Source: Spirochaetia bacterium (GTDB taxonomy: Bacteria; Spirochaetota; Spirochaetia; UBA9216). From it: 64,000 nt of DNA. Position numbers and translations under genes: made by a program. How positions within the stretch are numbered: position 1 is the stretch's first letter; each line of letters opens with the position of its first letter. The stretch covers positions 2,496,001 through 2,560,000 of the forward strand of contig OY776510.1 in the NCBI GenBank assembly GCA_963675665.1, read 5' to 3'. Positions 4,963 to 59,433 of this stretch are shown here, piece after piece. Under the pieces are notes generated by a model. It was not told the origin of the DNA and made no database searches. It saw only the letters and a program-made list of their open reading frames with translations.

Positions 4963-7900
4963 ATGAAAACAGGAGAAACATTCGACTATAAAGGAGCCTT
5001 GAAGACCCCGGGTCTATTTAATCCGGATGATACACGGGTGCCGGTGGATTTCAGCGGCAAGGTGGGGCTGCTGCTGTTTACCGACAACAGCATAGGCGAT
5101 TCATGGCAGGGCAGGCTTGATTCGATCTGGTCCGAAATGGAGACATTTCTTATAAATGAAAATATTGCGTCGGATGACGCCGATGTCAAGAACCATTTTC
5201 GTCTGACAGCTGTTGTCACAAACCACGGCGGCTCGTCTTCGATACCAATCTCGGCTGACTACGATGTGCTGCTTGATGCAGACGGGTTGGGTGATCTGTA
5301 CCGGGCGGAATTCCTGAACGCGACCGACGACTCTTTTCCGCTGAACGCTCTTGCCGGTGTCGGCAGCAGCCTGTGGGGTTTTATCATCGACAGCAACGAT
5401 ACCCTGGCCGACAAGTGGCATGACCTGGGAAATACGCAGACTGCCGGAGCCGATACTCCATCTGACCCGACTGATGATGTTTTTTCAAATGAGCCGATTT
5501 CGTTCCATCACCTTTCCCCGGCCGGATACACCGGTTTCGACAGCGCTGATTATGACAATGTTAAAGCCTATGTTCTGGAGCGTCTTAAAAACCTTTTCAG
5601 GGACCCTTATGTTATTTCAGCTGATCCCGCTATAGGCAGCGCGAATATCACCGTCGCTGATCTTTCTACCGTCAGAATCAGGTTTTCGCGTCCTCTGCTG
5701 CCGGCGGAACTCAAAGATTCCGGCAATTATTCAACCGGCGGTGGCGGCGGAACCGGGTTGCAGATCAACAGCGCGGATTACAATAATTCAGGCTTGTCTT
5801 CTGTTGATCAAATTAATGTAGGAGAAATTGAAAATGAAGTGACGCTCGGAATAACCAGGCCGGCCGGGCCTCCCCTCGACGCAGGAACAGTGCGTATTGA
5901 CCTTGATACCGCCGCATTGCTTACTCACGACACAAAAGGAATAACACCCAATATTGACACAAAGTATGCAGTAACTTTCAACGGCCCCGAAATCGTTCAT
6001 TCAGGGATCGTTCCGCCAGGGTCCAGTCCGCTGAATACACACACGTCGAATATGTACGGTAACCTCGAATTCAAGGTTCCTTTTACCGATGAGGTTTTTT
6101 CACAGCCTGTATCCTCTCCGACAGTTCCCGTAACAGGCGCGCTCACGACGGACGATGTCTCCGAGACTGTTTCAGGCGGCATAACCGGGTTTGTTTCAGC
6201 TGCGGCAGCGCCGGCAGCAAGCGGAGAGGCTGCCGCCCCAAATAAGCAGTATACGGTTACCCTGAATTCAGCTGGCTGGGGCGGCACCGGAACATTGCAG
6301 TTTACTTTGGGTACGAATTCGAATGCCGTGATTACCAACCGCTTCGGAAATGAGCTTCGCGGCGTAAAGAATTTCTCTTATACCCTGGACCTTGATCCAC
6401 CCGAGGCATCGATTCTTTATCCGTTAAACGGAGCGGTTGTGAATAACGTGACTGTAAGAGTCAGCGTAACGGGGGCCGCGGAGAAAAGGCTGATAATAAA
6501 CGGCCAGAGTACTGTTTTGGGCGGAGATTCCATAAATCTTTATGGTGTGACGGGTTACGGTTCGGTTGCTGACGGCACGACCTTTACCCTGATCTTGGAA
6601 GCGGTTGACGCGAACGGAAACAAAAAAACGGATTCAATCGAATTGACGAAAAATACCCTCACGGCGGAAGACCAGCAGCCCTACCATATTGTATATGTTG
6701 TAGACAAATCCGGAAGCATGAACTCAAACGCGACATACGGAAACCCGTCGGTAACAAAGCATAAAGCTGTCTGGGTGAGAGAAGCCCTCGACGCTGTTGT
6801 GCCTGATCTTATCGCCGAGTTTGGAACGCCCGGCGATCGCTACGGTGTGGTGCTTTATTCGAAAAATGCAATTACCGCGCTGGCGCTTACCCCGAAGCAG
6901 GATTTGGCCGTTAATCAGAATATTTTCTCCGATGCACTGGATGAAAATCCATTGAGCTCAACAACGGCGATGGGAGCAGGATTGTCAAGAGCCCTGGATT
7001 TGTTGAGTTATACCGTTCCGAACAATAACTACTTCGGCCGCCGGGCAATAGTGTTCTTTGCCGATGGCCAGCAAAACGTGCCGCCGTATGTAACCTTTAA
7101 CAGTACTGATAATCCCGACAGCCTGTCTGTCGAAACGGCAGGTACCGGCTCCGGGTGTCCTTCGAACATGGGAACAATAAATATCCCCGGAGGAGCTGAT
7201 ATCCCGGTACATACAATGGGGATCGGGTTCCAGGGCGACTGGCTGACTACGCTGGAAAATATTTCGTCGGTTTCCGGCGGCAGCGAATACTGCAGCGTTC
7301 AAATCTGGCCTGAAATAAGTGCGTCGTTAAACAGTATTCTTCCTGATCTTTTCCCGTCGTCAAGCCCGCAGATAGTAAGAAATGAATCGGAACATCTCGG
7401 CAGCAACGGCCGCGGAGAAATCCTTTTCCCGCTGAATACTACAGTATCAAAGATTGCATTTTATCTGGAATGGCCGGGGGGGAAGTCGCTTGATTTGACT
7501 CTAAAAAAAGGCAATACCAGGATTAGTTTCGACAGGATTATCAGAAAAGAAAGGTCGGTAATATGTATTGTTGAATTTCCTCATTATCAGCTTAAAACAT
7601 GGAGCGAAGGAGATTTAACTTATACCGATGAACGGGCGGAATCTCCACTTTCCCGGGTAATCAGGAAATCGAAACCGCGGTTTCGAAACAACGGCCGGTT
7701 TGTCGATCCTTCGGATATAGCATCGGCGTTTAAGTATTCGGTTCTACCCAGGGGTGATTGGTCCGTATCGGTTTTTTCGCCGGAGGATGGCGCCGCCGCG
7801 GCCGGCAGATCATATCTTCTGACTGTAATTGCCGATGAGAAAGATTATTATTATCAGCTTCAGTTGGGAGGTTTGCCGGTATTCGCGGGCAACCCCTTTG

Positions 7901-48018: not shown

Positions 48019-48957
48019 TTATTTCATCTTTGATAAAATTTCTTTTACCGAGCTGATTATACCATCAGAGTCAAGACCGTACATCTTTTTCAGAACCTCC
48101 CGTGGGGCTGCTTCGGCAAAATATCCTGCCGGCACGCCCCCGCGTTTAAGGCTGCAGTCAAGACGGTTGTCCAGGATTATTTCGGAAGTTAAAGCGCCGA
48201 TTCCTCCGTGAGTGCTGTGTTCTTCAAGCGTTAATGCTGCTCCTGTTTTTTGAAGCGACTTGATTATCCCCTCAGGGTTTAGCGGCCTGATTGACGGCAG
48301 ACTGATAATTTCTGCGCATACGCCTTCTTCTTCAAGGGCAACAGCCGCCCTTATTGCTTCATGTACGATTGTTCCCAGAGTAATCAGGCTGATGTCCCGG
48401 CCTTCACGTATTACGACAGCTTCTCCCGGTGTAAACCTGTAAGAAGCCTTGTGGATATTATCAGCCTTGAAACTGTCAAGCCTTATATAAACCGGCCCTT
48501 CATATGATGCAGCGTAGCGGGTTATCTGGCGGGTCTCTTCCGGATCGCACGGCGCAAAAATCTGAATGTTTCCAAATGCCAGTGCGGTTGATATATCGTC
48601 TATGCAATGATGGGTCGGCCCGAGTGAGCCGTATGCAAAGCCCGGGTTCAGACCGGCAAGTTTGACATTGGTATTTGAATAGCATACATCGGTTTTTACC
48701 TGCTCGTTTGATCGTCCCAGCAGAAATGGCGCTGCGTTAGCTGTAAACGGAATTGTTCCCCCGAGAGACATTCCGGCGGCAATGCCGATCATGTTCTGCT
48801 CGGCAATGCCCGTGTTTATGACAGAATCCGGATACTTTTCCATAAAGGGTTTAATTCTGCATGTTGATGTTGAATCGCTTACCAGGACATAAAGCCTGTC
48901 GTCATTTTCCTTTATCCTGCTTAACTCTTCTACAAAACAGTCTCTTAATTCTTCCAT
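48019..48957 (-). CDS. Transketolase, C-terminal subunit
   Basis: GIAEQNMIG, LGPTHHC, GPVYIRL and EEHS..GG. Confidence 0.88.
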   Translation of the reverse strand: MEELRDCFVEELSRIKENDDRLYVLVSDSTSTCRIKPFMEKYPDSVINTGIAEQNMIGIAAGMSLGGTIPFTANAAPFLLGRSNEQVKTDVCYSNTNVKLAGLNPGFAYGSLGPTHHCIDDISTALAFGNIQIFAPCDPEETRQITRYAASYEGPVYIRLDSFKADNIHKASYRFTPGEAVVIREGRDISLITLGTIVHEAIRAAVALEEEGVCAEIISLPSIRPLNPEGIIKSLQKTGAALTLEEHSTHGGIGALTSEIILDNRLDCSLKRGGVPAGYFAEAAPREVLKKMYGLDSDGIISSVKEILSKMK

Positions 48958-48959
48958 TT

Positions 48960-49787
48960 CTACTCAAGCTCCCTGATTGCGCTTGTAATTTCGTCTCCGA
49001 CTGGTATTTTGTGGTGCCAGGCTGCCTGGTCTTCAATAAAAGAAACGCCTTTCCCTTTTATTGTTTTTGCAATGATTACCGAGGGTCTTCCAACGGTTTT
49101 CATGGCTCCGGCAGCCGCTTTCAGAAATAATTCCGGGCTGTTACCGTTCGTTTCGATTACGTGAAAGCCGAAACTTCGGAATTTATCCGGCAGTGGTTCC
49201 AGCGCCATGATCGTTTCAGTCCGGTCGGCGAGCTGAAGGGTATTCCTGTCTATTATAACGGTAAGATTATCCAGCCTGAAATGTGCGGCGCTCATGGCGG
49301 CCTCCCAGTTTGAGCCTTCTTCCAGTTCCCCGTCGCCCAGAAGGACCCATGTCCGGTATGAAGCGTCTGTTTTTTTTGCGGCAAGAGCCATGCCGACTGC
49401 AGCCGGGAAACCGTGTCCCAGAGCGCCGGTGTTGAATTCTATGCCGGGCGTTTTCTGTCTTACCGGGTGGCCGGGCAGTTTTGCGCTACTGCCCAGATAT
49501 TCGCTTAACAATGACTTTTGAATAAAACCGGCTTCCGCAAGGGTGCAATAGTATCCGCCGACACCGTGGCCCTTGCTGAGGATAAACCTGTCCCTGCCGG
49601 GATCCTGCGGATTATTAATGTTGTAACGAAGAAGGTTGAAGTAGAGGCTTGCAAGGATATCGGTCTCGGATAAATCTGCGCCGGTATGCCCGGCGCCTGC
49701 ATTGGAATTCATCTCGATGATATTCCTTCTGATTTTTTTGGCTTTTTCTCCTGTTTCTTCAGCCGAAAGAGCAAAAGGATTTTTCAT
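48960..49787 (-). CDS. Transketolase, N-terminal (ThDP-binding) subunit
   Basis: GHTGADLS, DRFILSKGH, NTGALGHG and LGDGELEEGSNWE. Real start placed at MKNPF (49787). Confidence 0.88.
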   Translation of the reverse strand: MKNPFALSAEETGEKAKKIRRNIIEMNSNAGAGHTGADLSETDILASLYFNLLRYNINNPQDPGRDRFILSKGHGVGGYYCTLAEAGFIQKSLLSEYLGSSAKLPGHPVRQKTPGIEFNTGALGHGFPAAVGMALAAKKTDASYRTWVLLGDGELEEGSNWEAAMSAAHFRLDNLTVIIDRNTLQLADRTETIMALEPLPDKFRSFGFHVIETNGNSPELFLKAAAGAMKTVGRPSVIIAKTIKGKGVSFIEDQAAWHHKIPVGDEITSAIRELE

Positions 49788-49964
49788 GTTTACCCGCCTT
49801 TCTGATTGTATGATTTGATAATAACATCCAAACTTGCGTTTGTCAATCCAAAACGAAAATAAAACAAATAAATAGAAAGTTAAAAAAGATAAAAAACGCA
49901 ATAATAGAGCATAAACATAAATAAAAACATTGACAAACGAAATAGTCCGTGATAAAACGTAAGC
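49788..49964. promoter_or_regulatory. Divergent promoter region with repeated AAAC(G)xAA motifs (candidate DeoR operators)
   Basis: A-rich strand with several AAACGAAA/AAACGCAA/AAACGTAA/AAACATAA copies. TTGACA (49930)-N17-TAAAAC (49953) on +, and a TTGACA on the minus strand near 49841. Confidence 0.5.
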
Positions 49965-51380
49965 ATGAAAGACGGAAAAATCACATTCGGAGTAATTGTT
50001 GGGACCAGGGGGTTTTTCAACCCGGAACTTGCTGCGGAAGGACGGACACAGATTACAGCCCTGCTCGAGGAAAAGGGTTATAACCACGTTATTCTCGGCA
50101 GTTCGGAAACCCCTACCGGTGTTATTGAAGGTTATGACGACGCAAAAAAATGCGCCGCGCTGTTTCGACGCGAACGCGACGTCATAGATGGGATTCTGGT
50201 AATTTTGCCGAATTTCGGTGATGAAATAGGTGTTGTTAATACTTTAAAGGCAGCCGACCTTAATGTTCCGGTAATGGTGCAGGCGTCGAACGATGAAAAC
50301 GATAAAGTGGATGTGCTCCACCGCCGCGATGCGTTCTGCGGCAAGATCTCTGTATGCAACAACCTCTATCAGTACGACATCCCTTTTACAAATACAAGTC
50401 TGCATACATGCAATATTAACTCGGAAGAATTCGCTGCTGATCTCGACCGTTTTGCGGCGGTCTGCCGGATTGTTTCGGGCGTGAAAAAGGCCCGAATAGG
50501 GGCAATAGGAACACGACCGGCTGCTTTTCAAACGGTTCGTTTCAGTGAGAAGTTGCTGCAGGCCTCGGGGGTAACGGTTGTTCCTGTTGATATGTCGGAA
50601 ATTATTGCTGCGGCAGAAAAGCTGGCAGCCACAGATTCTGCGGTTCAGCAGAAACTTGAAGCTATTCACGGTTACGGCCGAATAGCCGTGGGAATTAACA
50701 ATGAGCAGATTGTTCGACAGGCGAAGCTTTCTGTAGTAATTGATAATTTTGTCGCAGAGAATGAGCTTGATGCTACCGCGGTACAATGCTGGGACAGCAT
50801 TCAATATAACTACGGCTGTGCCGCCTGCCTGTCCATGAGCATGATGGGTGAATCGGGACGTCCTTCAGCCTGCGAGATGGATGTTGCGGGAGCTTTATCC
50901 ATGCTGGTTCTGCGGCTGGCCTCCGGTAATTCTCCCGGGTTTCTTGACTGGAACAATAACTTCGACTATAAGGCCGAGAAATGCGTCTGTACGCATTGCA
51001 GTAATTATCCTGCAAGTTTTATGGGTTCGGATATTGAAATTGGACAGCTTGATATTCTCGGCAACACAATAGGAGCCGAGAAGTGTTTCGGGGCAATAAA
51101 GGGCAAGGTAGCTTCGGGCGATATGACCTATTTCAGGCTGTCCACCGACGATACATGGGGAACCATAAAGGCATACGGGGGAGAAGGTGAATTCACCGAT
51201 GATGCTTACGGTATGGACGGCGGAATTGCCGTCTGCCGTGTTCCCGGGCTTAACGATGTTATGAATCATATTTGTATGGAAGGATTTGAACATCATGTAG
51301 CAATGGTCAGGGGACATTGGGTCGGGATAATCGAGGAAGCCCTGGGGAAATACCTTAAGTGGGAATTCGCTCTTCTGTAA
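49965..51380 (+). CDS. L-fucose/L-arabinose isomerase-family sugar isomerase
   Basis: PNFGDE, RRDAFCGKIS, VQCW, SACEMD, CTHCSN and GFEHHV. Confidence 0.8.
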   Translation: MKDGKITFGVIVGTRGFFNPELAAEGRTQITALLEEKGYNHVILGSSETPTGVIEGYDDAKKCAALFRRERDVIDGILVILPNFGDEIGVVNTLKAADLNVPVMVQASNDENDKVDVLHRRDAFCGKISVCNNLYQYDIPFTNTSLHTCNINSEEFAADLDRFAAVCRIVSGVKKARIGAIGTRPAAFQTVRFSEKLLQASGVTVVPVDMSEIIAAAEKLAATDSAVQQKLEAIHGYGRIAVGINNEQIVRQAKLSVVIDNFVAENELDATAVQCWDSIQYNYGCAACLSMSMMGESGRPSACEMDVAGALSMLVLRLASGNSPGFLDWNNNFDYKAEKCVCTHCSNYPASFMGSDIEIGQLDILGNTIGAEKCFGAIKGKVASGDMTYFRLSTDDTWGTIKAYGGEGEFTDDAYGMDGGIAVCRVPGLNDVMNHICMEGFEHHVAMVRGHWVGIIEEALGKYLKWEFALL

Positions 51381-51403
51381 AACCGGATTGTTTTTATCGG
51401 AAT

Positions 51404-51424
51404 CGGCCGCAGTTTCTGCGGCCG
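51404..51424 (+). terminator. GC-rich hairpin after the isomerase gene
   Basis: CGGCCGCAG-TTT-CTGCGGCCG, with only a weak U-tract. Confidence 0.45.
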
Positions 51425-51560
51425 TAATTAACCACGCTTGTTCATATCGATAAGCTCTTTTGGTGCAGAATATAAAATGATCCCCATATTCAGTAACTTA
51501 TGATAAAATAGCCATCTGACATGTCATTTTGAGAATAAAGTTTATTATACAGGGGGCGGA

Positions 51561-53105
51561 ATGGAATCCCTTTTTGATGTTGTGGTCATCGGTTCGGGGC
51601 TCGGGGGGCTGAGCGCGGCTTTTGAATGCAGCAGGAAAGGTCTGAAAACTCTATTGCTTGAACAGCATAATTTACCCGGCGGGTATGCCTCAAGTTTTGT
51701 TCGCGGACGGTTTGAGTTTGAACCCTCGCTTCATGAGCTTCCCGATATGCGTTCCATCAAAGCCGCTACCGGGGTTATCCGTTACCTGTGTGATGATGCG
51801 GGACTGGACGTTTCCTTTTCTTCGATCCCCGACGCCTACAGGGTTATTCTTACCGATAAGGGAACGGACGTCAGAATGCCTTTCGGTGTTGAAAACCTTA
51901 TTGCAACAATTGCAGCTGAAGTACCCGGAAGTGAGGAGCCCGTCAGAAATTACATGACCCTGTGCCGGGAGGTCCAGGACGCTTTCAAATATCTGAATGA
52001 ACATGCAGATCATCTCAATTTTCGCGAAGTACTCAAAGAGCATGGAAACTTTATCCGTACCGGGGCTGCCACAGCGGCACAGGTTGCTGATTCACTGAAT
52101 GTCCCGGAGGCTGCAAGGGATCTGCTGCTTCCTTACTGGTGCTATCTTGGAGTTCCGGAGAACAGGGTTTCTTTTTCAATCTGGGCGGCCCTGCTTGATG
52201 CATATATATCTTCCGGTGCGGTAATTCCGAAGTTCCGTTCCCATGAGCTTTCGCAGGCGTTTATTGATAAATTCATTAGATCGGGCGGGGAATTCCGGCC
52301 CAACAGCAGGGTGGACCGGGTTATAGCAGAGAGCGGCCGGATAAAGGGTGTTGAGCTGGAAAACGGAGAGGTCATAAATACTCCCGTCGTAATAAGCAAT
52401 ACCTCGCCCACGAATGTTTTTTCAAAACTGGTATATCCGGAAAGTGAAGTCCCGCCGACGGCGTATAAAAATATTAGATCACGTAAAATGGGGTTCAGTC
52501 TGTTTGTCGTATATCTCGGGCTTGATGCGTCTCCGGAAGAACTCGGGCTTACGGATTACAGCTATTTTATTGCGCCCCATATGGATACTGAAAAACTGTA
52601 CCCAGAGGGGAAATCCCTTGATTCAACGGAGATTATGCAGGCTTCGGTTTGTCTTAATATCGGGAATCCGGGCTGTTCGCCTCCGGGGACAACCATCCTG
52701 GCCCTTACGGCGGGACAAAGGGCCGAAGCCTGGGCTGATGTTACCGCCGATTCATATCAGCAGACAAAAGAGATGGTTGCCGAAATAATGATAGACCAGT
52801 TTGAAAAGGCGGTCGGCGCAGATCTCCGTTCACATATTGAAGAAATAGAGATTGCATCGCCGCAGACCTTTGCCAGGTATACCGCGTCCCACGACGGCAT
52901 TGTATACGGGTATGAACCGGAAGTATGGGACGGAATTATCCCCAGGATTTTAAACCGGAAAGAAGAGAACTATATTGACGGGCTTCATTTCTGCGGAGGC
53001 TTTTCGTTCAGATGCCACGGATACGGTAGTTCCATCATGAGCGGAAAGGCTGCGGCAGAGGCTGTGTTTGCTGAATACGGAACGGGGAATATGAATGAAG
53101 GTTGA
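51561..53105 (+). CDS. Phytoene desaturase/retinol saturase-like FAD oxidoreductase
   Basis: DVVVIGSGLGGL, LEQHNLPGGYASSF.RG.FEFE.SLH, SLFVVYLG, ASPQTFARYT...GIVYG and GLHFCG. Confidence 0.8.
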   Translation: MESLFDVVVIGSGLGGLSAAFECSRKGLKTLLLEQHNLPGGYASSFVRGRFEFEPSLHELPDMRSIKAATGVIRYLCDDAGLDVSFSSIPDAYRVILTDKGTDVRMPFGVENLIATIAAEVPGSEEPVRNYMTLCREVQDAFKYLNEHADHLNFREVLKEHGNFIRTGAATAAQVADSLNVPEAARDLLLPYWCYLGVPENRVSFSIWAALLDAYISSGAVIPKFRSHELSQAFIDKFIRSGGEFRPNSRVDRVIAESGRIKGVELENGEVINTPVVISNTSPTNVFSKLVYPESEVPPTAYKNIRSRKMGFSLFVVYLGLDASPEELGLTDYSYFIAPHMDTEKLYPEGKSLDSTEIMQASVCLNIGNPGCSPPGTTILALTAGQRAEAWADVTADSYQQTKEMVAEIMIDQFEKAVGADLRSHIEEIEIASPQTFARYTASHDGIVYGYEPEVWDGIIPRILNRKEENYIDGLHFCGGFSFRCHGYGSSIMSGKAAAEAVFAEYGTGNMNEG

Positions 53106-54339
53106 GATTAACGGATCTTTCAGGGATATTGTTTCATTTATTGTTCATATAAAAAAGCGAAAGCGGATTTTTAAAAGGGCGAAAGCGTCGCCGGTGGCAC
53201 CGGGGCGGATGAATATGCTCGCCGAAGAGCTGCACCCCCTGTCGCAGAGGCTTATTGTAGATTCGGTTATAACTGAAACTGCCGATGCCAATACCTACAG
53301 GCTTAAAGGGGCGGGGCGGCGCCCGGCATTTTTTATTCCCGGGCAGTATATAAGTATAAGCCTGCAGATAGGCGGGTCAACTCTTGCAAGACCGTTTTCG
53401 ATTTCCTCCATGCCGCAGCAGACCATAGATGCCGGTTATTATGACATAACTGTAAAAAACAGCGACGACGAAGGATTTACCGGCCGGTGGATTATGGAAA
53501 ACTGGAAAACCGGAACCGAGGTAATGTCTTCAGGACCTGCAGGCTCCTTTACCTGGCAAAAACTGCGCGACTGCAGCTCTCTTGTGTGCATAGCCGGCGG
53601 TTCGGGAATTACTCCGTTTAAACCTATTATAAGTTCGCTGCTTTCATCCAACCGGTTTTCCCGGGTGATACTCTTTTATGGTGCCCGCAATTCAAATGAT
53701 CTTATTTTTAAAGATTTCTGGGAAGATACTGTAAAAAAACACGCCGGCAGGTTTTTCCATATTCCTGTTCTGTCTGAACCGGACAACGGCTGGCAGGGAG
53801 AGAAAGGATTTATCACAGCGGAGCTTATAACCCGGACGATAAAATCGGTACCGGGCGGGTTTACAGCCGACGAATGCAGTTACTTTATCTGCGGCCCCGA
53901 AGGGCTTCACAGTTTTATTGATAAGGAACTTTCCGGTCTTGATATCTCCGGCAAACGAATTCGCCGCGAGGAATATGCCGTTAATACCAGAAGCAGCGGC
54001 GTCGGTTCCCCGAGCGGAAAGAGAATTGTTTCCTTAACCGTCAGGCAGGGAGACAGTAATCTTGAAATAAAGGCTGATCCGGATGAAACTGTTCTTGTAG
54101 CCCTGGAAAGGGCGGGGCTGGACCCCCCGTCGCTCTGCCGGACCGGAGAATGCGGCTGGTGCCGGAGCAGGCTTGTTTCGGGAAAGATATCCGGGAACAA
54201 AAAGCCGGGACGAAGGTCTGGATTGCGAATGGCGGATGAGAAGTTCGGGTATTTTCATCCCTGCTCGGCATTTCCCGAAAGCGATCTGGTAATTGAGATC
54301 CCGCCGAATCCCGTAAAAAACTTAAGGAGTAGTTTATGA
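53095..54339 (+). CDS. Ferredoxin-NAD(P) reductase-like protein with a C-terminal [2Fe-2S] domain (PaaE/Hcr-like)
   Basis: FIPGQY, RPFSISS, IAGGSGITP, FICGP and CRTGECGWC...HPC. Confidence 0.85.
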   Translation: MKVEINGSFRDIVSFIVHIKKRKRIFKRAKASPVAPGRMNMLAEELHPLSQRLIVDSVITETADANTYRLKGAGRRPAFFIPGQYISISLQIGGSTLARPFSISSMPQQTIDAGYYDITVKNSDDEGFTGRWIMENWKTGTEVMSSGPAGSFTWQKLRDCSSLVCIAGGSGITPFKPIISSLLSSNRFSRVILFYGARNSNDLIFKDFWEDTVKKHAGRFFHIPVLSEPDNGWQGEKGFITAELITRTIKSVPGGFTADECSYFICGPEGLHSFIDKELSGLDISGKRIRREEYAVNTRSSGVGSPSGKRIVSLTVRQGDSNLEIKADPDETVLVALERAGLDPPSLCRTGECGWCRSRLVSGKISGNKKPGRRSGLRMADEKFGYFHPCSAFPESDLVIEIPPNPVKNLRSSL

Positions 54340-55196
54340 AGATTGTTGCTGATTCAGCGCTGCAGCTGGAGCAGGAAACCGTTAAAAGTCTCGGACTGAA
54401 GGTTGTCGAATATCCTATGTATCTGAACGGCGAAGATTATCCTGTTTCGATGTCGATGAGCCGCTCGGAGAAAGATGAACTCAGAATGCTTCTGAAGGAT
54501 AAAAACAACAAGATTACTACTTCCGGTCTGAGGGAACGCGATCTGAAGGAGATATATCTTTCCTGCAGGAAAGATAAGATAATCTCAATTCACCAGTCCG
54601 GCAGGGCCTCTACAGCTTCTTCGGCCATGATAAACCGGGTACTGACTGACAACCCTGAGCTGGATGTGACCTTTATCGATGCCCATCACCTTACCGCTGC
54701 CTACTCGGTTATCGTTCAGCAGGTTGCAGAGGCTGTTGCAGCCGGGATGGAGTTTGATGAACTGATGAGATATATCGAAACAATTCGTGATAATACCAGG
54801 CACCTGGGCGTCGTGTACGACCTCTTTTACCTGCACCGGACCGGGCGAATAGGTCTGGCCAAAGCCGTTATGGGGTCCGCAATGAAAATTATTGCCCTGC
54901 TTGGTTCTTCCGATGAACCCGGGGTCCTTGTATCCATAGGCAAGGTAAAAAATCATATCCAGGCGAATACTAAATTTGCGGCCCTGGTAAAAGAGGATAT
55001 GGAGAAGAAAAACGGCAAACGGGTCAGGTGTGTTATTTCAGTCATCGGACCTCATGAAAAGGAAGCGGAAGACCTTAAGAACAGGCTTGAAGAGCTGGAT
55101 TTTCCTGTTCATGCCGAGGTACACTACTCAAACCATTCAAATATGCCCCACGCGGGGCCTGATTTCTATGATCTGGGGTATACGATCCATGCCTAG
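54336..55196 (+). CDS. DegV-family fatty acid-binding protein (FakB-like)
   Basis: KIVADSA, ITTSG, LFYLHRTGRIG and PHAGP. Confidence 0.8.
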   Translation: MKIVADSALQLEQETVKSLGLKVVEYPMYLNGEDYPVSMSMSRSEKDELRMLLKDKNNKITTSGLRERDLKEIYLSCRKDKIISIHQSGRASTASSAMINRVLTDNPELDVTFIDAHHLTAAYSVIVQQVAEAVAAGMEFDELMRYIETIRDNTRHLGVVYDLFYLHRTGRIGLAKAVMGSAMKIIALLGSSDEPGVLVSIGKVKNHIQANTKFAALVKEDMEKKNGKRVRCVISVIGPHEKEAEDLKNRLEELDFPVHAEVHYSNHSNMPHAGPDFYDLGYTIHA

Positions 55197-56787
55197 TCAT
55201 GTTCTTGAATGCGGAGATTTCACAAGGGCGTTTTTCACCAGCGCCGAACATCTCAATGTCAATCTGAAAGTCCTTGACAACCTTAACGTATTCCCTGTTC
55301 CCGACGGAGATACGGGCGCCAATATGTGCGCTACCTTTATTCCGGCGGTGAAAAATCTTAAGGGCGGAAGGATCCTGTCCTGCAGGGACATCGGCGACAT
55401 CATTGTTCCGAAAATGGACAATCACAGCCGCGGTAATTCGGGATTTATAATCTCCAGGTTTTTCAAGGGATTTTTCTCATGTATGAACCAGGACTCCGCC
55501 CTGACAATGGACAGAATTCGGGACGGATTTTCCAGGGGATATTTTGAAGCGCATACCGCCCTTTTTAATCCTGTGGAAGGAACTATGATCTCGGTGATTT
55601 CTTCAATGAATGAAGCGATTACAGGCTGGAGCGGCAATTCCATAAGGGAATGTCTTGAACATGCCGTGGCTGAAGCAAGAAAAACTCTTTTCAGAACGCC
55701 TGAGATGCTTCCGGTGCTTGCCCGCGCCGGGGTCGTCGACAGCGGCGCGCTGGGATTTATATGCATTATAGAAGGTCTGCTTCTGGGGTTGAGCAGCAGG
55801 AGTCCTTTCAGGGAAATAGAATCGGAGTACAGGTTCAGCCCGGACCCCGACGCCGGTTCGGATGATGTCAGTCTGAAACCGGGGCAGTTCTGCACAGAAT
55901 TAACGATGAAGCTTGAGCATAACTTCCCTGAAAAGGAAATTCGCGAGTATCTGGTAGAGATGGGAAACTCGATAGCCCTTGTAAGGGAGAATGATTTTGT
56001 AAAACTGCATATTCATACTGATTTTCCTGATCAGCTGATTAATAAATTTGAACAGTTCGGGACCATAACGGACAGAAAAATTGATGATATATATGCCCAG
56101 ATTAAGGGGGGCAAGGGCAGCGGAGAGGCCTTCAGAGGCTGTGAAGTCCTGCCCTGTGTTCCCGGCCCGGGGTTTAAAAAAATATTCAACGATCTCGGCA
56201 TTGAGAACGTTCTTGTTTACGGTCCGTCGCTGCCGTCCGCCAGGGAGATCCTCGAAGCTGTCGATAAAGCCGGGGTTGAAGATCTGATTCTTCTTCCGAA
56301 CGACAGTAACATTCTTCCTGCATGCATGACGGCCAAAGAGAAAAGCGGCAAGCATATCTCAATCATCCCTTCGGGAGATATTGTTCAGGGGCTGACCGCC
56401 TGCTACGGGTTCAGCGAGAACGAGGAACTTGAAGTAAATACAGTTTCCATGACAGACTGCCTCGGTATGGCCGATTCGTTTTTCATGTACAAAAGCGCTG
56501 CCGATCGGAGTTTCGGCGGGATTGATATCAGAAAGGACCATTATTTTCTGGTTAAGGGAAAGGACATCCTGTCTGTGGATATCGATTACTGCCGCGCAGT
56601 CATGAACGGGCTTGAAAAAGCTGATACAGACCAGAAAGGCAACATCACCCTTTTCTACAGGGAAGCGGAAGGCGGGGCTGAGCTGGAAGAACTCAGGACG
56701 CTTATTACCGAAAAATTTCCTCACCTGGAACTGGAACTGATTTTCGGAGGGCAGAGCCGGGGAGAGTTGATTATTGCTCTTGAATAA
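55189..56787 (+). CDS. DAK2-domain fatty acid kinase subunit (FakA-like)
   Basis: LNVFPVPDGDTGANM, SRGNSG, PVEGTMISV, GVVDSGALG, FCTE, KLHIHTD and LPNDSNI. Start 55189 overlaps the DegV stop. Confidence 0.85.
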   Translation: MPSHVLECGDFTRAFFTSAEHLNVNLKVLDNLNVFPVPDGDTGANMCATFIPAVKNLKGGRILSCRDIGDIIVPKMDNHSRGNSGFIISRFFKGFFSCMNQDSALTMDRIRDGFSRGYFEAHTALFNPVEGTMISVISSMNEAITGWSGNSIRECLEHAVAEARKTLFRTPEMLPVLARAGVVDSGALGFICIIEGLLLGLSSRSPFREIESEYRFSPDPDAGSDDVSLKPGQFCTELTMKLEHNFPEKEIREYLVEMGNSIALVRENDFVKLHIHTDFPDQLINKFEQFGTITDRKIDDIYAQIKGGKGSGEAFRGCEVLPCVPGPGFKKIFNDLGIENVLVYGPSLPSAREILEAVDKAGVEDLILLPNDSNILPACMTAKEKSGKHISIIPSGDIVQGLTACYGFSENEELEVNTVSMTDCLGMADSFFMYKSAADRSFGGIDIRKDHYFLVKGKDILSVDIDYCRAVMNGLEKADTDQKGNITLFYREAEGGAELEELRTLITEKFPHLELELIFGGQSRGELIIALE

Positions 56788-56820
56788 CGGAAGCTGTTTT
56801 TAAAGAAGGAATGATAATAA

Positions 56821-57486
56821 ATGAATGTTCAATATGTTGTTGTATCAGTTATTTCGATAATTGCCGGATATCTGTCAGGATCGGTTAATTACGCCATTCC
56901 TGTTACAAGGATGGTTATCGGCAAGGATATCAGGACCATAGGCAACCACAACCCGGGGACATCCAATGTTGTCCGTGAGGTCGGTGCAGCCTGGGGCGTT
57001 TTAGTCGGGTTTCTTGACGGCATGAAGGGGCTTGTTCCCGTATTAATACTGAGGATTGTGTTTTTCAGCGGGGACAGCGGGATCGATTTTTTTATCCTTT
57101 ATCTTACGGGTTTTGCCGCGGTTATCGGACACTGCAAATCCGTGTTCCTGAAATTTAAAGGCGGCGGCGGTATCGGCACAATGCTTGGGGTATCACTGTT
57201 CTTTGTTCCGGTTGAATTCCTCTTTTCGATGTTCCTGGGAGGGCTGATCGTGCTGATCTTTTTCAGGAATGCAAAGTACCGGTTCGGCCAGAAAACGCCG
57301 ATCTTTTTTGTAACCCTTACGCCGTTTGTGACCCTGGCGTCTTCCCTGATTATGGATATACGCCTGTTCGCGCATATTTCGATAGGGGGACATAACTGGG
57401 GCACCATAGCAGGCGCCTTTGTTATGTCCCTCGGCATTCTGTCGTTTAATCTGAAATTTCTTACTTCAAAATCCGGAAAGAGGTAG
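56821..57486 (+). CDS. PlsY-family acyl-phosphate acyltransferase with atypical active-site motifs
   Basis: GYLSGSVN, DIRTIGNHNPGTSNVVR, DGMKG and GH...FKGGGGIGT. No HxxNIxR motif. Confidence 0.75.
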   Translation: MNVQYVVVSVISIIAGYLSGSVNYAIPVTRMVIGKDIRTIGNHNPGTSNVVREVGAAWGVLVGFLDGMKGLVPVLILRIVFFSGDSGIDFFILYLTGFAAVIGHCKSVFLKFKGGGGIGTMLGVSLFFVPVEFLFSMFLGGLIVLIFFRNAKYRFGQKTPIFFVTLTPFVTLASSLIMDIRLFAHISIGGHNWGTIAGAFVMSLGILSFNLKFLTSKSGKR

Positions 57487-57519
57487 ATGCGGCTGCATAA
57501 ACAGCAGCCGTTCTTCGAA

Positions 57520-57822
57520 CTAGTCTCTCCGTTTATGGCTGGCGCCTTTTGATCCTCCGCCATAGAAAATGGAGATCCCGATAATGAATCCGAAATTATA
57601 CCAGCCGCCGTTATTATAAACCTCGTATACGTTTACCTTGTCGCTGAAGATAGAGATAATAAACGTAAAAAGCGATATCAATCCGTGCCAAAGCCCGAGC
57701 AGAAATCCGGCGGGTTTATCTTCCTTAACAGACTGTTCCAGCACATTCGGTCCGGCTGCGCAGCCTATGAGCACTATTGCCGCAGTAATTAAAATGAATA
57801 ACAGAAGTTTCTTTTTGTTCAT
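57520..57822 (-). CDS. Small membrane lipoprotein, conserved hypothetical
   Basis: Lipobox LIG-C; AGFLLGLWHG and YEVYNNGGWYNFGF. Confidence 0.65.
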   Translation of the reverse strand: MNKKKLLLFILITAAIVLIGCAAGPNVLEQSVKEDKPAGFLLGLWHGLISLFTFIISIFSDKVNVYEVYNNGGWYNFGFIIGISIFYGGGSKGASHKRRD

Positions 57823-57906
57823 ACAATTCCCCTTGAATCAGAATTTAATAAGTAATCAAGTCTCTATTAAACACCTCATACTATTAAAAGTGTTACCTTA
57901 ATATTT

Positions 57907-59331
57907 TTAAAGTTCTGTTTCTTCGGGATACCAGATACTGGTTTTATGTTTGAATGACCTTTTGCCTGCATATTTAAGGAAAAATAATCCGGTAAAAAGC
58001 AGGTAAGCAACATTTATCAGAACCGCTATCCAGAACCATTTGAAATCACCGGTGGTGTAGGTATGAAGAGGTAAATTCATGGTAAGAACATACGGCATGG
58101 CAAAAACAAACGTAATGGCTGATGCATAGGTATAGTCGGTGGCAACGGGAGTTTCAAAATCCGGGTCAACAACACGAAGAAGAGCAAGACCTGTAGATAA
58201 TGTTCCGGTTGAAACCCCGAACACCAGCAGGGTCCTTAAAAACCTGTGATCTGAAAAAATTCTTGATGAGTACCAGAGAGTTGTAAATGCAACGACAACT
58301 GCTCCGATAACCGCAGTTATAATAATCGGCGCCCAGTAATTCATTATAACGACTATTGAAATTGCCGCAATTGCACTGGCCACCATTACGTCTACAAAAA
58401 TACCGGTAAGTCTGTTCATGGTCATATTGTCAACAATATATTGCTTGTCTGTGGCTTTCAGTATTTGACGCAGCAGCAGTCCCGCAAGCGCGGCGAATAT
58501 AAAACTGAGGCCCCAGAATGTATCCGCCAGCCTTTCGCCGGTCGGTCCGAGAAACGAGAGAAGATAGTCCAGTCCTTTCAGCGTAAGGAATGCGGCAAAA
58601 TAACCCAGCAGAACAAGGGCCAGGTTCAGGGTCAGGGTGTCGATCGCTTCAGTTTCAGTAGTAAGAAATGAACCCGGTTTGAGTTTGGCTCCTTTCGGAT
58701 GTATTCCCGGGCGCAGGTCCTTATCCTTTAAAAAACTTACCTGCTCTTCGGGTATCCAGTTCTTTTTAAGGCCGATATTGATCATTAGAATACCGCCGAA
58801 ACTGCACAATATGAATCCCAGTGCGGCAAATGTCAGTCCTATGCTCCCGGCGCCTTCTACACCGAATGCTTTCCAGCTTTCTCCTATCGAATATGCCTGG
58901 CCCGGGCCCTGGGCGAACCCCAAAGGAAGCAGGTAGCCGAAGCTGTGAAATAAATCGGGCTTGATGGTTTTTATAAATACAAAGGTCAGGATAAGTCCAA
59001 TAAAACCCTGCACGCCGAACTGGAACAGTACGGAGAGCGAGGTGCCGAATATTCTGCCTTTTCCCGGTTTTTTTCGCGGCAGGGCTTTCAACGACAATGC
59101 GACGAACGAAAGGCTCAGCAGGTGATACGCCATTTCGCCCAGATCTACCGTCGACAGCCCGATATGCGGAAATACAAAATTATATAACGGCAGCAGCATA
59201 AAGCCTGCAAGCAGCGAATTCGGTATCAGGTATCTTTGAAAAAAGTTAACTTTTGTTCTGATAATAGTGGCAAGAAGAAGAGCCGCGGATATAATTCCGA
59301 GATTTATAAACACTGACCATTGATAACTCAT
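57907..59331 (-). CDS. Sodium:glutamate symporter (GltS/ESS family)-like transporter
   Basis: FQRYLIPNSLLAG, GFAQGPGQA and FGVSTGT..TGLALLRVVDP; many TM helices. Confidence 0.75.
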   Translation of the reverse strand: MSYQWSVFINLGIISAALLLATIIRTKVNFFQRYLIPNSLLAGFMLLPLYNFVFPHIGLSTVDLGEMAYHLLSLSFVALSLKALPRKKPGKGRIFGTSLSVLFQFGVQGFIGLILTFVFIKTIKPDLFHSFGYLLPLGFAQGPGQAYSIGESWKAFGVEGAGSIGLTFAALGFILCSFGGILMINIGLKKNWIPEEQVSFLKDKDLRPGIHPKGAKLKPGSFLTTETEAIDTLTLNLALVLLGYFAAFLTLKGLDYLLSFLGPTGERLADTFWGLSFIFAALAGLLLRQILKATDKQYIVDNMTMNRLTGIFVDVMVASAIAAISIVVIMNYWAPIIITAVIGAVVVAFTTLWYSSRIFSDHRFLRTLLVFGVSTGTLSTGLALLRVVDPDFETPVATDYTYASAITFVFAMPYVLTMNLPLHTYTTGDFKWFWIAVLINVAYLLFTGLFFLKYAGKRSFKHKTSIWYPEETEL

Positions 59332-59433
59332 GTAAAACCTCATTTATAGTTTGCGCTGTATATGAAAAATCTATTATAATTATTGATGGGATTTAAGAAT
59401 ATTGCAACAAGGAATTCACTACAGGAGTATCGT

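Follow-up and report, generated by a model that had tools for sequence, protein, structure and literature searches.

Five genes lie on the same (+) strand at 51561–57486 of the window, the 64,000-nucleotide stretch of spirochaete DNA that was analysed. From the list of open reading frames and profile searches they encode, in order, a flavoprotein (CrtIl), a reductase (Red), a DegV/FakB protein (FakB*), FakA (FakA*) and a PlsY-like protein (PlsY*). The features are as follows.

51368..51560, + strand: intergenic region ahead of CrtIl, with a putative promoter and a putative ribosome-binding site; also the left edge of the block that the same-genus genome G154 lacks
51561..53105, + strand: CrtIl, 514 aa; FAD flavoprotein of CrtI/phytoene-desaturase fold; proposed to be the catalytic subunit, with a lipophilic C=C bond as its target
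53095..54339, + strand: Red, 414 aa; NAD(P)H-FAD-[2Fe-2S] reductase; proposed electron donor to CrtIl
54336..55196, + strand: DegV*/FakB (FakB*), 286 aa; fatty-acid-binding subunit of fatty acid kinase, a divergent family member
55189..56787, + strand: FakA*, 532 aa; three-domain catalytic subunit of fatty acid kinase
56821..57486, + strand: PlsY*, 221 aa; 7-TM acyl-phosphate acyltransferase of the PlsY fold, its acceptor pocket remodelled
57487..57537, + strand: right end of the 6.17-kb block absent in G154 (blastn); homology resumes at 57538

An earlier note on this DNA had described a five-gene operon here, and its reading frames, overlaps and gap are all confirmed. Successive genes overlap stop to start by 11 nt (53095–53105), 4 nt (54336–54339) and 8 nt (55189–55196), and 33 nt (56788–56820) separate FakA* from PlsY*. 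The longest reading frame of the FakA* gene begins at a GTG at 55030; the ATG at 55189 was adopted because relatives (L041, L042 and L052) align from its residue 1. A GGGGG stretch 6 nt ahead of the CrtIl ATG is a putative ribosome-binding site. There is a weak promoter-like site at 51521–51548, with the promoter scan as a whole at chance level; the promoter and terminator pattern scans gave counts at the level of shuffled sequence (11 vs 8.0 ± 2.9 and 10 vs 7.5 ± 3.3) and are uninformative. Upstream of the operon lie genes for glycerol kinase, a split transketolase and a fucose-isomerase-like protein; on the downstream side come an unknown gene of 478 aa and one for a PF01553 acyltransferase. 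No carotenoid gene occurs within about 5 kb, as the earlier note had said, and its family assignments hold in Pfam and TIGR profile searches of all five proteins.

CrtIl matches Pfam Amino_oxidase over its full length as well as DAO. Its best family models are those of carotenoid isomerase and crtI_fam: the match to TIGR02734 (crtI_fam) is full-length but sub-threshold (115.6 bits, cut-off 238.1), and TIGR02730 gives 116.3 bits against a cut-off of 586.9. The GxGxxG motif (G11, G13, G15, G16) is invariant, and the AF2 model (pLDDT 78) finds 4REP (E 4.4e-27, TM 0.76/0.79) and 4DGK as its best PDB matches. The CrtIl sequence has no feature marking a fatty-acid pocket. Red combines an FNR-like module (Pfam FAD_binding_6 and NAD_binding_1) with a C-terminal plant-type ferredoxin domain (Fer2), and a conserved segment of about 50 aa extends its N terminus. 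It has conserved RPFS, GGSGITPF and CGP motifs, and the cysteine pattern C348-x4-C353-x2-C356-x33-C390 is invariant in 16 sequences. This FNR-[2Fe-2S] architecture is known for passing electrons from NAD(P)H to an acceptor.

The two proteins are constantly found together. Red adjoins CrtIl in 79 of 83 full-length CrtIl rows, the other four being cut by a contig end, so that among the 83 no CrtIl with enough contig lacks an adjoining Red. Furthermore, of 21 longer proteins found, 20 (counted as protein clusters) join Red and CrtIl in one chain of 904–951 aa carrying FAD_binding_6, NAD_binding_1, Fer2 and Amino_oxidase; in the two checked against Pfam, Red is N-terminal and CrtIl C-terminal. BLASTP of one fusion against Red gives 37% identity over 409 residues, N-terminal extension included, and the fusions that are named come from Syntrophales, Smithellaceae and Deltaproteobacteria MAGs. 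Constant adjacency and natural fusion bear out the proposal that the reductase is the partner of the flavoenzyme, and by this comparison CrtIl and Red are predicted to form one two-part enzyme.

FakB* scores 129.5 bits against Pfam DegV (cut-off 27) and 137.5 against TIGR00762 (cut-off 99.7). It is a divergent member of the family, the DegV of genome G120 reaching 285.7 bits against DegV. In pairwise HMMER alignments with solved FakB/DegV chains the T/S, S, R and H positions are kept; the same positions bind carboxylate in S. suis FakB2, as described in an excerpt from PMC10848957. FakA* contains Pfam Dak2, FakA-like_M and FakA-like_C and falls under the cut-off of TIGR03599 (384.6, cut-off 396.1). 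Its residues 18–523 align to S. suis FakA (7w7h_A) with the PVPDGDTG(A/T)NM motif intact. Thus both the kinase Mg/ATP motif and the predicted carboxylate-binding positions of the Fak pair are preserved.

PlsY* is less conventional. Pfam G3P_acyltransf gives 108.4 bits, covering profile positions 2–141 of 164 only, TIGR00023 gives 93.1 against a cut-off of 137.2, and hhalign aligns only residues 9–139 to canonical PlsYs of the class. The structural model nevertheless resembles Aquifex aeolicus PlsY (5XJ5–5XJ9), with a predicted 7-TM fold matching 5xj5 over 189/199 residues (Z 20.7, rmsd 2.5 Å). The equivalents of H92, G102, G103, G105, N37 and R45 of the Aquifex acyl-phosphate site are kept in 17 of 17 PlsY* sequences, and T41 is Ser in 14. 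By contrast, the glycerol-3-phosphate (G3P) clamp is altered, with K104 replaced by Gly in all 17 and S35 by Asn in 14 of the 17. S142, H177 and N180 of the Aquifex enzyme fall within the C-terminal 80 residues, a part that is unaligned at profile level in PlsY*; in a MAFFT alignment an invariant PlsY* Asn falls under H177. PlsY* also has an insertion of roughly 15 residues and a new conserved motif, PLFAHISIGGH. Among the residues missing from PlsY* are ones nearly indispensable for G3P use by Aquifex PlsY, according to an excerpt from PMC5700162 (Nat Commun 2017). Incorporation into phospholipid is therefore not secured. As judged from the alignments and the model, PlsY* keeps the fold and the acyl-phosphate site and has altered G3P-binding residues, in agreement with the earlier description of the PlsY as atypical.

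The complete five-gene order occurs in nine genomes of a 301-genome sample of the class (G134, G041, G257, G223, G287, G053, G138, G292 and G232, the PlsY of G257 being cut by a contig end), with CrtIl 46–85% identical to that of the window. Fragments fitting the order are present on cut contigs in five others (G013, G060, G265, G243 and G259). Nine of 80 metagenome loci hold the complete set (L091, L092, L095, L097, L099, L102, L105, L108 and L133) and four are cut yet fit it (L096, L101, L103 and L106); some rows are near-copies, the CrtIl of L044 and L091 being identical and those of L046 and L092 nearly so. The flanking genes differ in each genome examined (32 flank ORFs, 11 loci). The junctions are tight or overlapping in the relatives too. 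The same five genes recurring in the same order between different flanks indicates an arrangement beyond chance. In addition, blastn of the window against contig C109 of the same-genus genome G154 reveals an empty site: the contig matches window 50319–51367 and, about 150 bp later, 57538–57758, so that the whole block 51368–57537 is a single indel. G154 (81% complete) carries a Fak-clade CrtIl split in two reading frames, with a Red and with no DegV, FakA or PlsY within 5 kb.

In the CrtIl tree of 83 rows (drawn open) all 18 Fak-linked rows fall inside one 25-row clade (SH-aLRT 91). Fak-linked CrtIl sequences are thus essentially one clade, within which the oxidoreductase pair is no rare companion of fakAB-plsY. 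Most CrtIl/Red pairs in nature are Fak-unlinked (45 Red-only rows vs 18 Fak-linked), and the Fak link is a derived feature of one CrtIl/Red sub-clade. A single residue, Y75, tells Fak-linked CrtIl apart from unlinked CrtIl, so the link says little about CrtIl specificity. It might be argued that the halves are functionally independent, CrtIl/Red performing unrelated redox chemistry and DegV-FakA-PlsY* plain fatty-acid salvage under a common promoter, since each half also occurs apart: CrtIl/Red alone in the 45 rows, and PlsY*-like proteins with FakA and DegV and no CrtIl/Red in G120 and G003. This seems quite unlikely given that the joint order is retained in at least 8 families of the class, between flanks that change and even where CrtIl identity falls to 46%, that the Fak-linked CrtIl rows are essentially one clade, that the junctions are tight or overlapping here and in relatives, and that the block is gained or lost whole. 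The synteny and the single indel support the view of the five genes as a conserved, dedicated unit. The earlier interpretation is thus supported in part: it stands as regards the dedicated unit, the Red partner and the atypical PlsY, with the qualification that the Fak link is not general to CrtIl/Red pairs. A literature search found no paper on this five-gene operon and, among the matches listed, none joining fatty acid kinase with phytoene desaturase.

The genome contains a single DegV, a single FakA and a single PlsY (its sole PF02660 match), all in the operon. Canonical plsY or fakAB genes elsewhere in the genome, a possibility raised in the earlier note, were not found, nor was plsX; the operon here therefore does not duplicate a housekeeping set. 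The only PF02504 match is a fused glycine-reductase component C, hence no PlsX in this genome, and PlsX was not found in G134 or G287 either. Without PlsX, acyl-phosphate cannot exchange with acyl-ACP. The operon could then be taken for the housekeeping entry into phospholipid, PlsY being the main G3P acyltransferase with the redox pair alongside, as it holds the only PlsY, FakA and DegV and neither PlsX nor a PlsB of E. coli size was found in the genome (all six PF01553 ORFs are ≤425 aa). This is very improbable. FASII is present (FabF 612.7, FabH 398.1 and FabZ 128.9 bits), and its acyl-ACP cannot supply PlsY without PlsX. PF02660 is found in none of five same-genus genomes (completeness 100, 96, 96, 81 and 81%), 226 of 301 class genomes have no PlsY* match at E ≤ 0.001, G154 has the empty site, and the G3P clamp has lost K104 in all PlsY* sequences and S35 in most. 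A canonical FakA/PlsY set does exist alongside the operon's own in G287 and on contig L103. The operon is an accessory, dedicated module, not a housekeeping one.

The neighbours of Fak-unlinked pairs give hints towards fatty acids in a minority of pairs. FadR-like GntR regulators lie beside several, with FadR_C above cut-off in L161, L162, L170 and L157, and a CrtIl/Red paralogue in the window's own genome (L054) has a FadR_C-type neighbour also above cut-off; four of the FadR-like cases are close relatives of one another in the CrtIl tree, and GntR/FCD regulators bind many ligands. Elsewhere the adjacent genes encode an acyl-CoA dehydrogenase and NMO (L115), an enoyl-CoA hydratase and a DAG-kinase-like protein (L125), an AMP-ligase (L163) or a FadH-like OYE/Pyr_redox_2 protein (L055). 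The Syntrophales, Smithellaceae and Deltaproteobacteria origin of the named fusions is a further hint of this kind. Flanks were scanned at 24 unlinked metagenome loci (44 of 93 listed flank ORFs), and lipid-related neighbours occur at only 7 of these loci; the others show cation-efflux, Ldh_2, AFOR, glycyl-radical, radical-SAM or unknown genes.

Characterised CrtI-family enzymes act mostly on isoprenoids, which speaks against an ordinary fatty acid as substrate. In one alternative the same module handles a lipophilic carboxylic acid of isoprenoid or other type (e.g., phytol- or carotenoid-derived), which CrtIl/Red would saturate and the Fak and PlsY* proteins activate and esterify. The carotenoid-desaturase fold and best models of CrtIl, the divergence of FakB*, homologues about 49% identical that bear Asgard-archaeal MAG names and a UbiA prenyltransferase gene preceding the FakA-DegV-PlsY*-like cluster of G120 are in its favour. 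We consider it unlikely: the UbiA gene concerns one locus, which lacks CrtIl/Red, the operon neither contains nor adjoins an isoprenoid or carotenoid gene at 11 loci or in the window, the informative neighbours of unlinked pairs are fatty-acid/acyl-CoA genes and FadR-like regulators, and FakB* retains the carboxylate-binding positions of fatty-acid FakBs. Also unlikely is the reverse order of events, in which the Fak and PlsY* proteins would esterify first and CrtIl/Red would then modify the acyl chain of a membrane lipid. UfaD, a CrtI-like desaturase that takes part in making furan fatty acids, works on chains bound in phospholipid, and CrtI-type enzymes are peripheral membrane proteins that draw substrate from the bilayer. 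Moreover, the predominance of pairs without Fak genes implies that CrtIl/Red can receive its substrate without FakB. Against this order, CrtIl and Red come first in the operon, and unlinked pairs beside a free-acid-activating AMP-ligase (L163) or FadR-like regulators fit free acids or acyl-CoAs.

The reading we favour, with a little less than even confidence, is that C=C bonds of exogenous fatty acids are reduced or isomerised in a reaction driven by NAD(P)H, and that the acids are then phosphorylated and esterified to an uncertain acceptor. Red would take electrons from NAD(P)H via FAD and [2Fe-2S] and hand them to the FAD of CrtIl, whose reduced flavin would saturate a C=C bond of the acyl chain. 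As to the direction of electron flow, NAD(P)H reduces an isolated C=C bond in an exergonic reaction, and the reverse reaction is not exergonic. RetSat, of the same family as CrtI, saturates a C=C bond. Alternatively, CrtIl may isomerise the bond without net redox change in the manner of CRTISO, a carotenoid isomerase of that family, which needs reduced FAD for its non-redox isomerisation. The dedicated FakB* would then bind the fatty acid for phosphorylation by FakA*, and PlsY* would move the acyl group from the acyl-phosphate onto a membrane-proximal acceptor; as the G3P clamp is altered, this acceptor may be some other alcohol, or G3P in a different binding mode. The module would thus be accessory, horizontally portable and directed at exogenous long-chain (unsaturated) fatty acids.

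CrtIl shares with the carotenoid desaturases CrtI and CrtD (4DGK, 4REP) the fold and the N-terminal FAD-binding motif, and their family HMMs align end to end. It differs in scores far under the family cut-offs, in 18% identity to both 4REP and 4DGK, in the lack of carotenoid context and in its obligate FNR-[2Fe-2S] partner, sometimes fused. To our knowledge no characterised CrtI-family enzyme has such a partner. UfaD and the delta-24 sterol desaturase of Sterolibacterium are, by description, precedents for the CrtI fold acting on fatty-acyl or sterol side chains. The Sterolibacterium enzyme is a CrtI-like flavoenzyme on a non-carotenoid lipid chain, according to an excerpt from PMC11061730. 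As described, both are desaturases, unlike the reduction or isomerisation proposed for CrtIl. For neither do we know of a link to Fak or of a reductase partner of the NAD(P)H-[2Fe-2S] kind. Red has its three domains in the order of PaaE and the four Cys ligands of oxygenase reductases (PaaE, BenC, phthalate-dioxygenase-reductase type). However, it is paired with a flavoprotein and not with an oxygenase, in a genome that is anaerobe-like, it scores 134.9 against the PaaE model (cut-off 420.8), and its conserved N-terminal segment is extra. With the FakA/FakB-PlsX-PlsY route by which Firmicutes (S. aureus, streptococci, E. faecalis) use exogenous fatty acids, the operon shares the full Fak domain sets, the Mg/ATP motif, the carboxylate positions and a PlsY-fold enzyme encoded after FakB* and FakA*. 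The equivalog models are missed here (NF038249, 51.5 vs 350; NF038248, 232.6 vs 975; TIGR00023, as above), the host is a spirochaete, and PlsX is absent from this genome, G134 and G287. Finally, the genes of FakB*, FakA* and PlsY* are here predicted to share an operon with a flavoenzyme pair.

An ORF reading of the window recovers all five genes of the operon (51561-57486) with the boundaries that an earlier note on this DNA had assigned to them:

51561-53105, forward strand: CrtIl, a CrtI-family flavoprotein
53095-54339, forward strand: Red, an FAD/NAD(P)H/[2Fe-2S] reductase
54336-55196, forward strand: the operon's version of DegV (FakB)
55189-56787, forward strand: the operon's version of FakA
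56821-57486, forward strand: the operon's version of PlsY

The first four genes overlap by 11, 4 and 8 nt, and 33 nt separate the fourth from the PlsY gene. The longest frame of the fourth gene opens at a GTG at 55030; the in-frame ATG at 55189 is preferred, since the FakA proteins of relatives align from its first residue. Scans for promoter and terminator patterns found nothing beyond shuffled sequence, and Rfam gave no match over 51300-58000 at E ≤ 0.1. We tentatively read the operon as a portable module by which unsaturated fatty acids from outside are conditioned, then activated and esterified, a reading that falls somewhat short of probable. CrtIl/Red would saturate or isomerise the incoming acids, a private Fak system (the operon FakB and FakA) would then activate them, and the operon PlsY would esterify the activated acids to glycerol 3-phosphate (G3P) or another acceptor.

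The five-gene unit recurs across the class, for which a sample of 301 genomes was searched; 24 have a CrtIl match at E ≤ 1e-60. The synteny comparison suggested by the earlier note, made around CrtIl matches of at least 46% identity, bears the unit out, with the same five-gene order found in G134, G041, G257, G223, G287, G053, G138, G292 and G232. Contig ends cut the operon in G013, G060 and G265, where the missing Red-DegV-FakA-PlsY or FakA-PlsY pieces lie on other short contigs, and like pieces occur on short contigs in G243 and G259. A metagenome scan of 80 loci yields nine complete five-gene sets and four that are cut but consistent, some of these being near-copies of the genome loci. The flanks of the operon differ from genome to genome and are unrelated. 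In G154, a genome of the same genus, blastn finds the fucose-isomerase-like gene (homology to window position 51367), then about 150 bp, then homology to window 57538-57758, so that the whole of window 51368-57537 forms a single block indel. Neither direct nor inverted repeats bound this 6.17-kb block, around which just short, chance-like families were seen.

Sugar-metabolism genes lie upstream of the operon, and downstream stand a gene without a known family and then a PF01553 acyltransferase (Pfam). Three features of these surroundings were recorded on their own account:

48019-50087, reverse strand: two genes for the N- and C-terminal halves of a split transketolase, lying between a glycerol kinase and the fucose-isomerase-like gene
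57538-57758: a stretch just past the operon with 78-80% nucleotide identity in three same-genus genomes
57907-59343, reverse strand: a 478-aa protein without a Pfam or NCBIfam match

The transketolase genes are absent at the same place in G154 and constitute a second indel beside the operon. Neither Pfam, for the ORFs across the conserved stretch (57520-57822, reverse; 57638-57901, forward), nor Rfam gave a match there. The 478-aa protein is 80-86% identical in same-genus genomes, where it adjoins the PF01553 acyltransferase, and has a 52%-identical paralogue in the window's own genome (G000:C1:1033077-1034495). Its gene and that of the 424-aa acyltransferase were considered as module members and rejected, since they are kept as neighbours in same-genus genomes lacking the operon and are absent from the other operon loci, except that G265 has an acyltransferase of 31% identity some 2.5 kb away from its operon.

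A tree of 83 CrtIl rows places the 18 Fak-linked ones, in which CrtIl/Red stand next to DegV-FakA-PlsY, in one 25-row clade (SH-aLRT 91, drawn open). Its remaining members are five rows cut by contig ends and two that are Red-only, namely L149_1, on a long branch, and the G154 copy. This clade is nested among Red-only clades, and the Fak link is therefore derived. The G154 locus (L051, contig C434; genome 81% complete) holds a CrtIl of the Fak clade whose gene is broken into two frames (6343-7841), and a Red (5135-6313), with no DegV, FakA or PlsY following within 5 kb and no PF02660 match in the genome; the split gene and its Red are either a decaying remnant or an assembly error. The Fak half also has relatives of its own, as distant homologues of the operon PlsY (33-54% identity) are found either singly or clustered with FakA and DegV, with no CrtIl/Red present. 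The two halves can thus each be found apart as well as in the recurring five-gene order. Mere co-regulation of the two is distinctly unlikely. In G287 and on contig L103, canonical FakA and PlsY adjoin the operon's own set, accompanied on L103 by a canonical DegV, and the operon copies of Fak and PlsY are here specialised paralogues.

For the proposed module, the first step would fall to CrtIl. The glycines of its N-terminal, FAD-binding GxGxxG motif (G11, G13, G15, G16) do not vary among 12 orthologues, and across the 83 rows their conservation is 95% or higher. The protein scores below the cut-offs of both TIGR02734 (crtI_fam; 115.6 against 238.1 bits, protein 7-507 on profile 1-493 of 504) and TIGR02730 (carotenoid isomerase/RetSat-like; 116.3 against 586.9 bits). 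Its structural model (pLDDT 78, pTM 0.79) has the CrtI-type three-domain fold and matches 4REP best (E 4.4e-27, TM 0.76/0.79), then 4DGK (E 1.2e-21), then amine oxidases. A protein atlas look-up returned only generic CrtI-family cluster names. Comparison of the 83 rows finds a single residue that tells Fak-linked from unlinked CrtIl. An Fe-S site in CrtIl was considered and dropped, as unlinked paralogues do not conserve C135, C194, C364 and C478, the cysteines that never vary within the Fak clade.

Red has the FNR-type build of PaaE and phthalate dioxygenase reductase: it comprises FAD_binding_6 (56-154), NAD_binding_1 (166-275) and a C-terminal, plant-type Fer2 domain (320-394; all Pfam) and contains the cofactor motifs RPFS and GGSGITPF. 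The cysteines of its Cx4Cx2C...C motif (C348, C353, C356, C390) are invariant in 16 sequences. All 24 models listed for it score below cut-off, the best being PaaE (TIGR02160) at 134.9 against 420.8. To judge from gene context and protein fusions, CrtIl and Red are a single enzyme. Red is adjacent in 79 of the 83 full-length CrtIl rows and the other four are cut by a contig end, so that none with room lacks it; such pairs still occur where CrtIl identity has fallen to about 31%. Among 21 longer proteins recovered at E ≤ 1e-30, 20 (904-951 aa) carry FAD_binding_6, NAD_binding_1, Fer2 and amine-oxidase/DAO domains. In the two that were scanned for order, Red makes up the N-terminal part, with CrtIl joined straight on to its ferredoxin domain. 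In the one compared by BLASTP (P0274), the Red part is 37% identical to the window's Red, its unusual N-terminal extension included. These natural single-chain fusions (P0271-P0290, 904-951 aa) come, where named, from Syntrophales, Smithellaceae, Syntrophaceae and 'Deltaproteobacteria' MAGs. Electrons would pass from NAD(P)H through the flavin to the C=C bond, a direction to which thermodynamics and the established function of reductases of this build both point.

The neighbours of unlinked pairs bear on the substrate. The flank scan covered 44 of 93 flank ORFs and 24 of 45 Red-only metagenome loci, plus the class loci. FadR-like GntR/FCD regulators with FadR_C over cut-off accompany the pairs at L161, L162, L170 and L157 and the paralogous pair of the window's own genome (L054), and GntR/FCD alone is found at L059. 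Other pairs have an acyl-CoA dehydrogenase and NMO nearby (L115), an enoyl-CoA hydratase and a DAG-kinase-like gene (L125), an AMP-ligase (L163) or a FadH-like OYE/Pyr_redox_2 protein (L055). Most scanned loci have uninformative neighbours, among them CDF cation efflux (7 loci), Ldh_2, AFOR, glycyl-radical enzymes, radical SAM and DUF1848. The lean of CrtIl/Red towards fatty acids is therefore real but modest. An isoprenoid or other lipophilic acid as substrate is unlikely; the earlier note had seen no carotenoid genes nearby, and none of that pathway turned up in the window flanks or in 11 orthologous loci. Two of the unlinked pairs were noted for themselves. The second pair of the window's own genome (G000:C1:357577-360317; L054:7569-10351) is 46% and 39% identical to the operon's, with its regulator adjoining and divergently transcribed and TRAP-transporter genes near. 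A distant pair (31% and 34% identity; L060:8599-13085, G279:C1) has DUF5692 proteins on both sides, an arrangement seen in small, complete family f34 genomes of about 2.8-2.9 Mb.

Activation of a fatty acid would be the task of the operon DegV and FakA. The former exceeds the cut-offs of PF02645 (129.5 against 27) and TIGR00762 (137.5 against 99.7) and falls below that of FakB1 (NF038249; 51.5 against 350 bits). In S. suis FakB2 the carboxylate is bound by T61, S93, R170 and H264 (PMC10848957). Pairwise HMMER comparison with 3fys, 6dke, 1pzx and 4x9x puts TS, S (SIHQS), R (TGR) and H (PHAG) at these positions; by alignment alone and at low identities, the operon DegV thus appears divergent with its carboxylate-binding positions kept. 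The operon FakA has all three expected domains over their cut-offs (Dak2 108.8, FakA-like_M 60.8, FakA-like_C 128.9 bits) and aligns over residues 18-523 to S. suis FakA (7w7h_A). Its PVPDGDTGANM aligns with PVPDGDTGTNM of 7w7h_A and 8vip_A; the Mg/ATP-binding aspartates of the S. suis enzyme are given as D37 and D39 in PMC10848957. It narrowly misses TIGR03599 (YloV; 384.6 against 396.1) and scores 232.6 against 975 with NF038248.

The operon PlsY is, as the earlier note had it, atypical. It passes PF02660 (108.4 bits, cut-off 24.1) and misses TIGR00023 (93.1, cut-off 137.2). Its model superposes on Aquifex PlsY (5xj5) with Z 20.7 and an rmsd of 2.5 Å over 189 of 199 residues, although confidence is low in its C-terminal half (pLDDT 42-73). 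Residue roles and mutant activities are those given for Aquifex PlsY in PMC5700162, and residues are numbered accordingly. The equivalents of N37, N42, R45, H92, G102, G103 and G105 are present in all 17 operon-linked proteins, and T41 is replaced by Ser in 14 of them and by Ala in 3; the T41S mutant of the Aquifex enzyme retains 45% of its activity (PMC5700162). The predicted acyl-phosphate 'phosphate hole' and carbonyl binders (H92, the G102-G105 loop, T41) are therewith retained. The G3P phosphate clamp (S35, R45, K104, N180) appears altered: R45 is kept in 17/17, K104 is Gly in 17/17 and S35 is Asn in 14 (Ser in 3), positions at which K104A leaves 7% and S35A 5% of Aquifex activity (PMC5700162). 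In canonical PlsYs of the class the motifs GSGN, GGKG and HR(K/S)N are intact. Profile-profile alignment with them ends at residue 139, and N180 has no placeable equivalent. At the H177 site, which with S142 contacts the glycerol 2-OH, MAFFT puts an invariant Asn in 23/23 rows of the operon type and His in three canonical rows, in a region unreliable in both alignment and model. The operon type also has an insertion of about 15 residues and a conserved PLFAHISIGGH motif. With fold and acyl-phosphate site kept and the G3P clamp changed, the protein is filed as a putative acyl-phosphate acyltransferase with the PlsY fold rather than as a proven G3P acyltransferase. Its family is small, 31 representatives at E ≤ 1e-30 against 7,337 PlsY-like ones at E ≤ 1e-10 among 1.84 billion proteins. 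A different order of events, in which the chain would be modified after esterification, has a low probability.

Several PlsY variants were met besides. The cluster L068:2721-6785 (G120:C122) joins a UbiA prenyltransferase, FakA, DegV and a protein 54% identical to the operon PlsY, with Arg in the place of K104, and has no CrtIl/Red. P0138 is of the operon type with a 217-aa N-terminal extension without a Pfam match, and P0161 (516 aa) combines a PlsY with a lipid-A-acyltransferase-like domain in one chain. Two otherwise canonical-looking PlsYs (L189:494-1144, G257:C53; L192:730-1392, G063:C1) have SVRKR(L/V)K in place of HR(K/S)N, the His177/Asn180 motif, and may be another acceptor-site variant.

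The window's genome is a single contig of 5.15 Mb, with a 'Spirochaetales bacterium' MAG as nearest named relative. Canonical plsY or fakAB genes elsewhere in it, a possibility raised by the earlier note, were not found by profile searches or tblastn: the operon contains the genome's only PF02660, DegV and FakA matches. A PF02504 search of the genome found no PlsX. The sole match was rejected as such and is a fused component C of glycine/sarcosine/betaine reductase (beta 550.3, alpha 391.3 bits). This 783-aa protein (G000:C1:1926916-1929267; L004:190-2541), which could be mistaken for PlsX, is followed downstream by a ferredoxin-like protein and an aldehyde:ferredoxin oxidoreductase. FabF, FabH and FabZ of FASII are present, as are six PF01553 acyltransferases, none of them PlsB-sized. 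PF02504 searches found no PlsX in G001, G134 and G287 and gave weak matches only in G091 and G184, in 858-876-aa frames resembling Grd protein. These searches, those of the same genus and those of the class lead to the conclusion that the genus is not dependent on PlsX/PlsY and that the operon is accessory. That it serves as a housekeeping entry to phospholipid synthesis is very improbable, given that 226 of the 301 class genomes have no match to its PlsY, that G154 has an empty site, that PF02660 is found in 0/5 same-genus genomes (completeness 100, 96, 96, 81 and 81%), and that K104 and mostly S35 are lost. G287 (L045; 99% complete) has a canonical PlsY and FakA beside the operon and no PF02504 match, so that even its canonical PlsY would need feeding by Fak alone.

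The conditioning module can be put in a bolder form, fairly unlikely as a whole. CrtIl/Red would represent a new class of fatty-acid C=C reductase, driven by NAD(P)H and independent of oxygen; this 'biohydrogenase' of anaerobes would have two subunits in spirochaetes and one fused chain in syntrophic Deltaproteobacteria. In a spirochaete sub-clade, private FakB/FakA would channel its product to a PlsY variant acylating a non-G3P acceptor, giving a lipid outside the canonical pathway. [quoted passage not shown] An expressible and concrete candidate for such hydrogenation is a CrtI-fold enzyme whose NAD(P)H-[2Fe-2S] donor is fused to it or encoded next door. We know of no clear electron donors for RetSat and CRTISO, and CrtIl/Red would provide the first defined one for a reductive CrtI-family enzyme. 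The Fak part of the operon takes fatty acid kinase biology to spirochaetes without PlsX, and the operon PlsY, a small natural sub-family with a rebuilt G3P clamp, is useful for work on acceptor specificity in the PlsY drug-target family. A literature search that left most subscription journals outside its reach found nothing linking Fak to a CrtI-family enzyme, on Fak in spirochaetes, or on a CrtI-family enzyme with an FNR-[2Fe-2S] partner. Within the literature searched there is no description of the reductive CrtI-type enzyme in its fused or two-component form, of its joining with Fak in one operon or of the PlsY variant, while each part is of a known kind.
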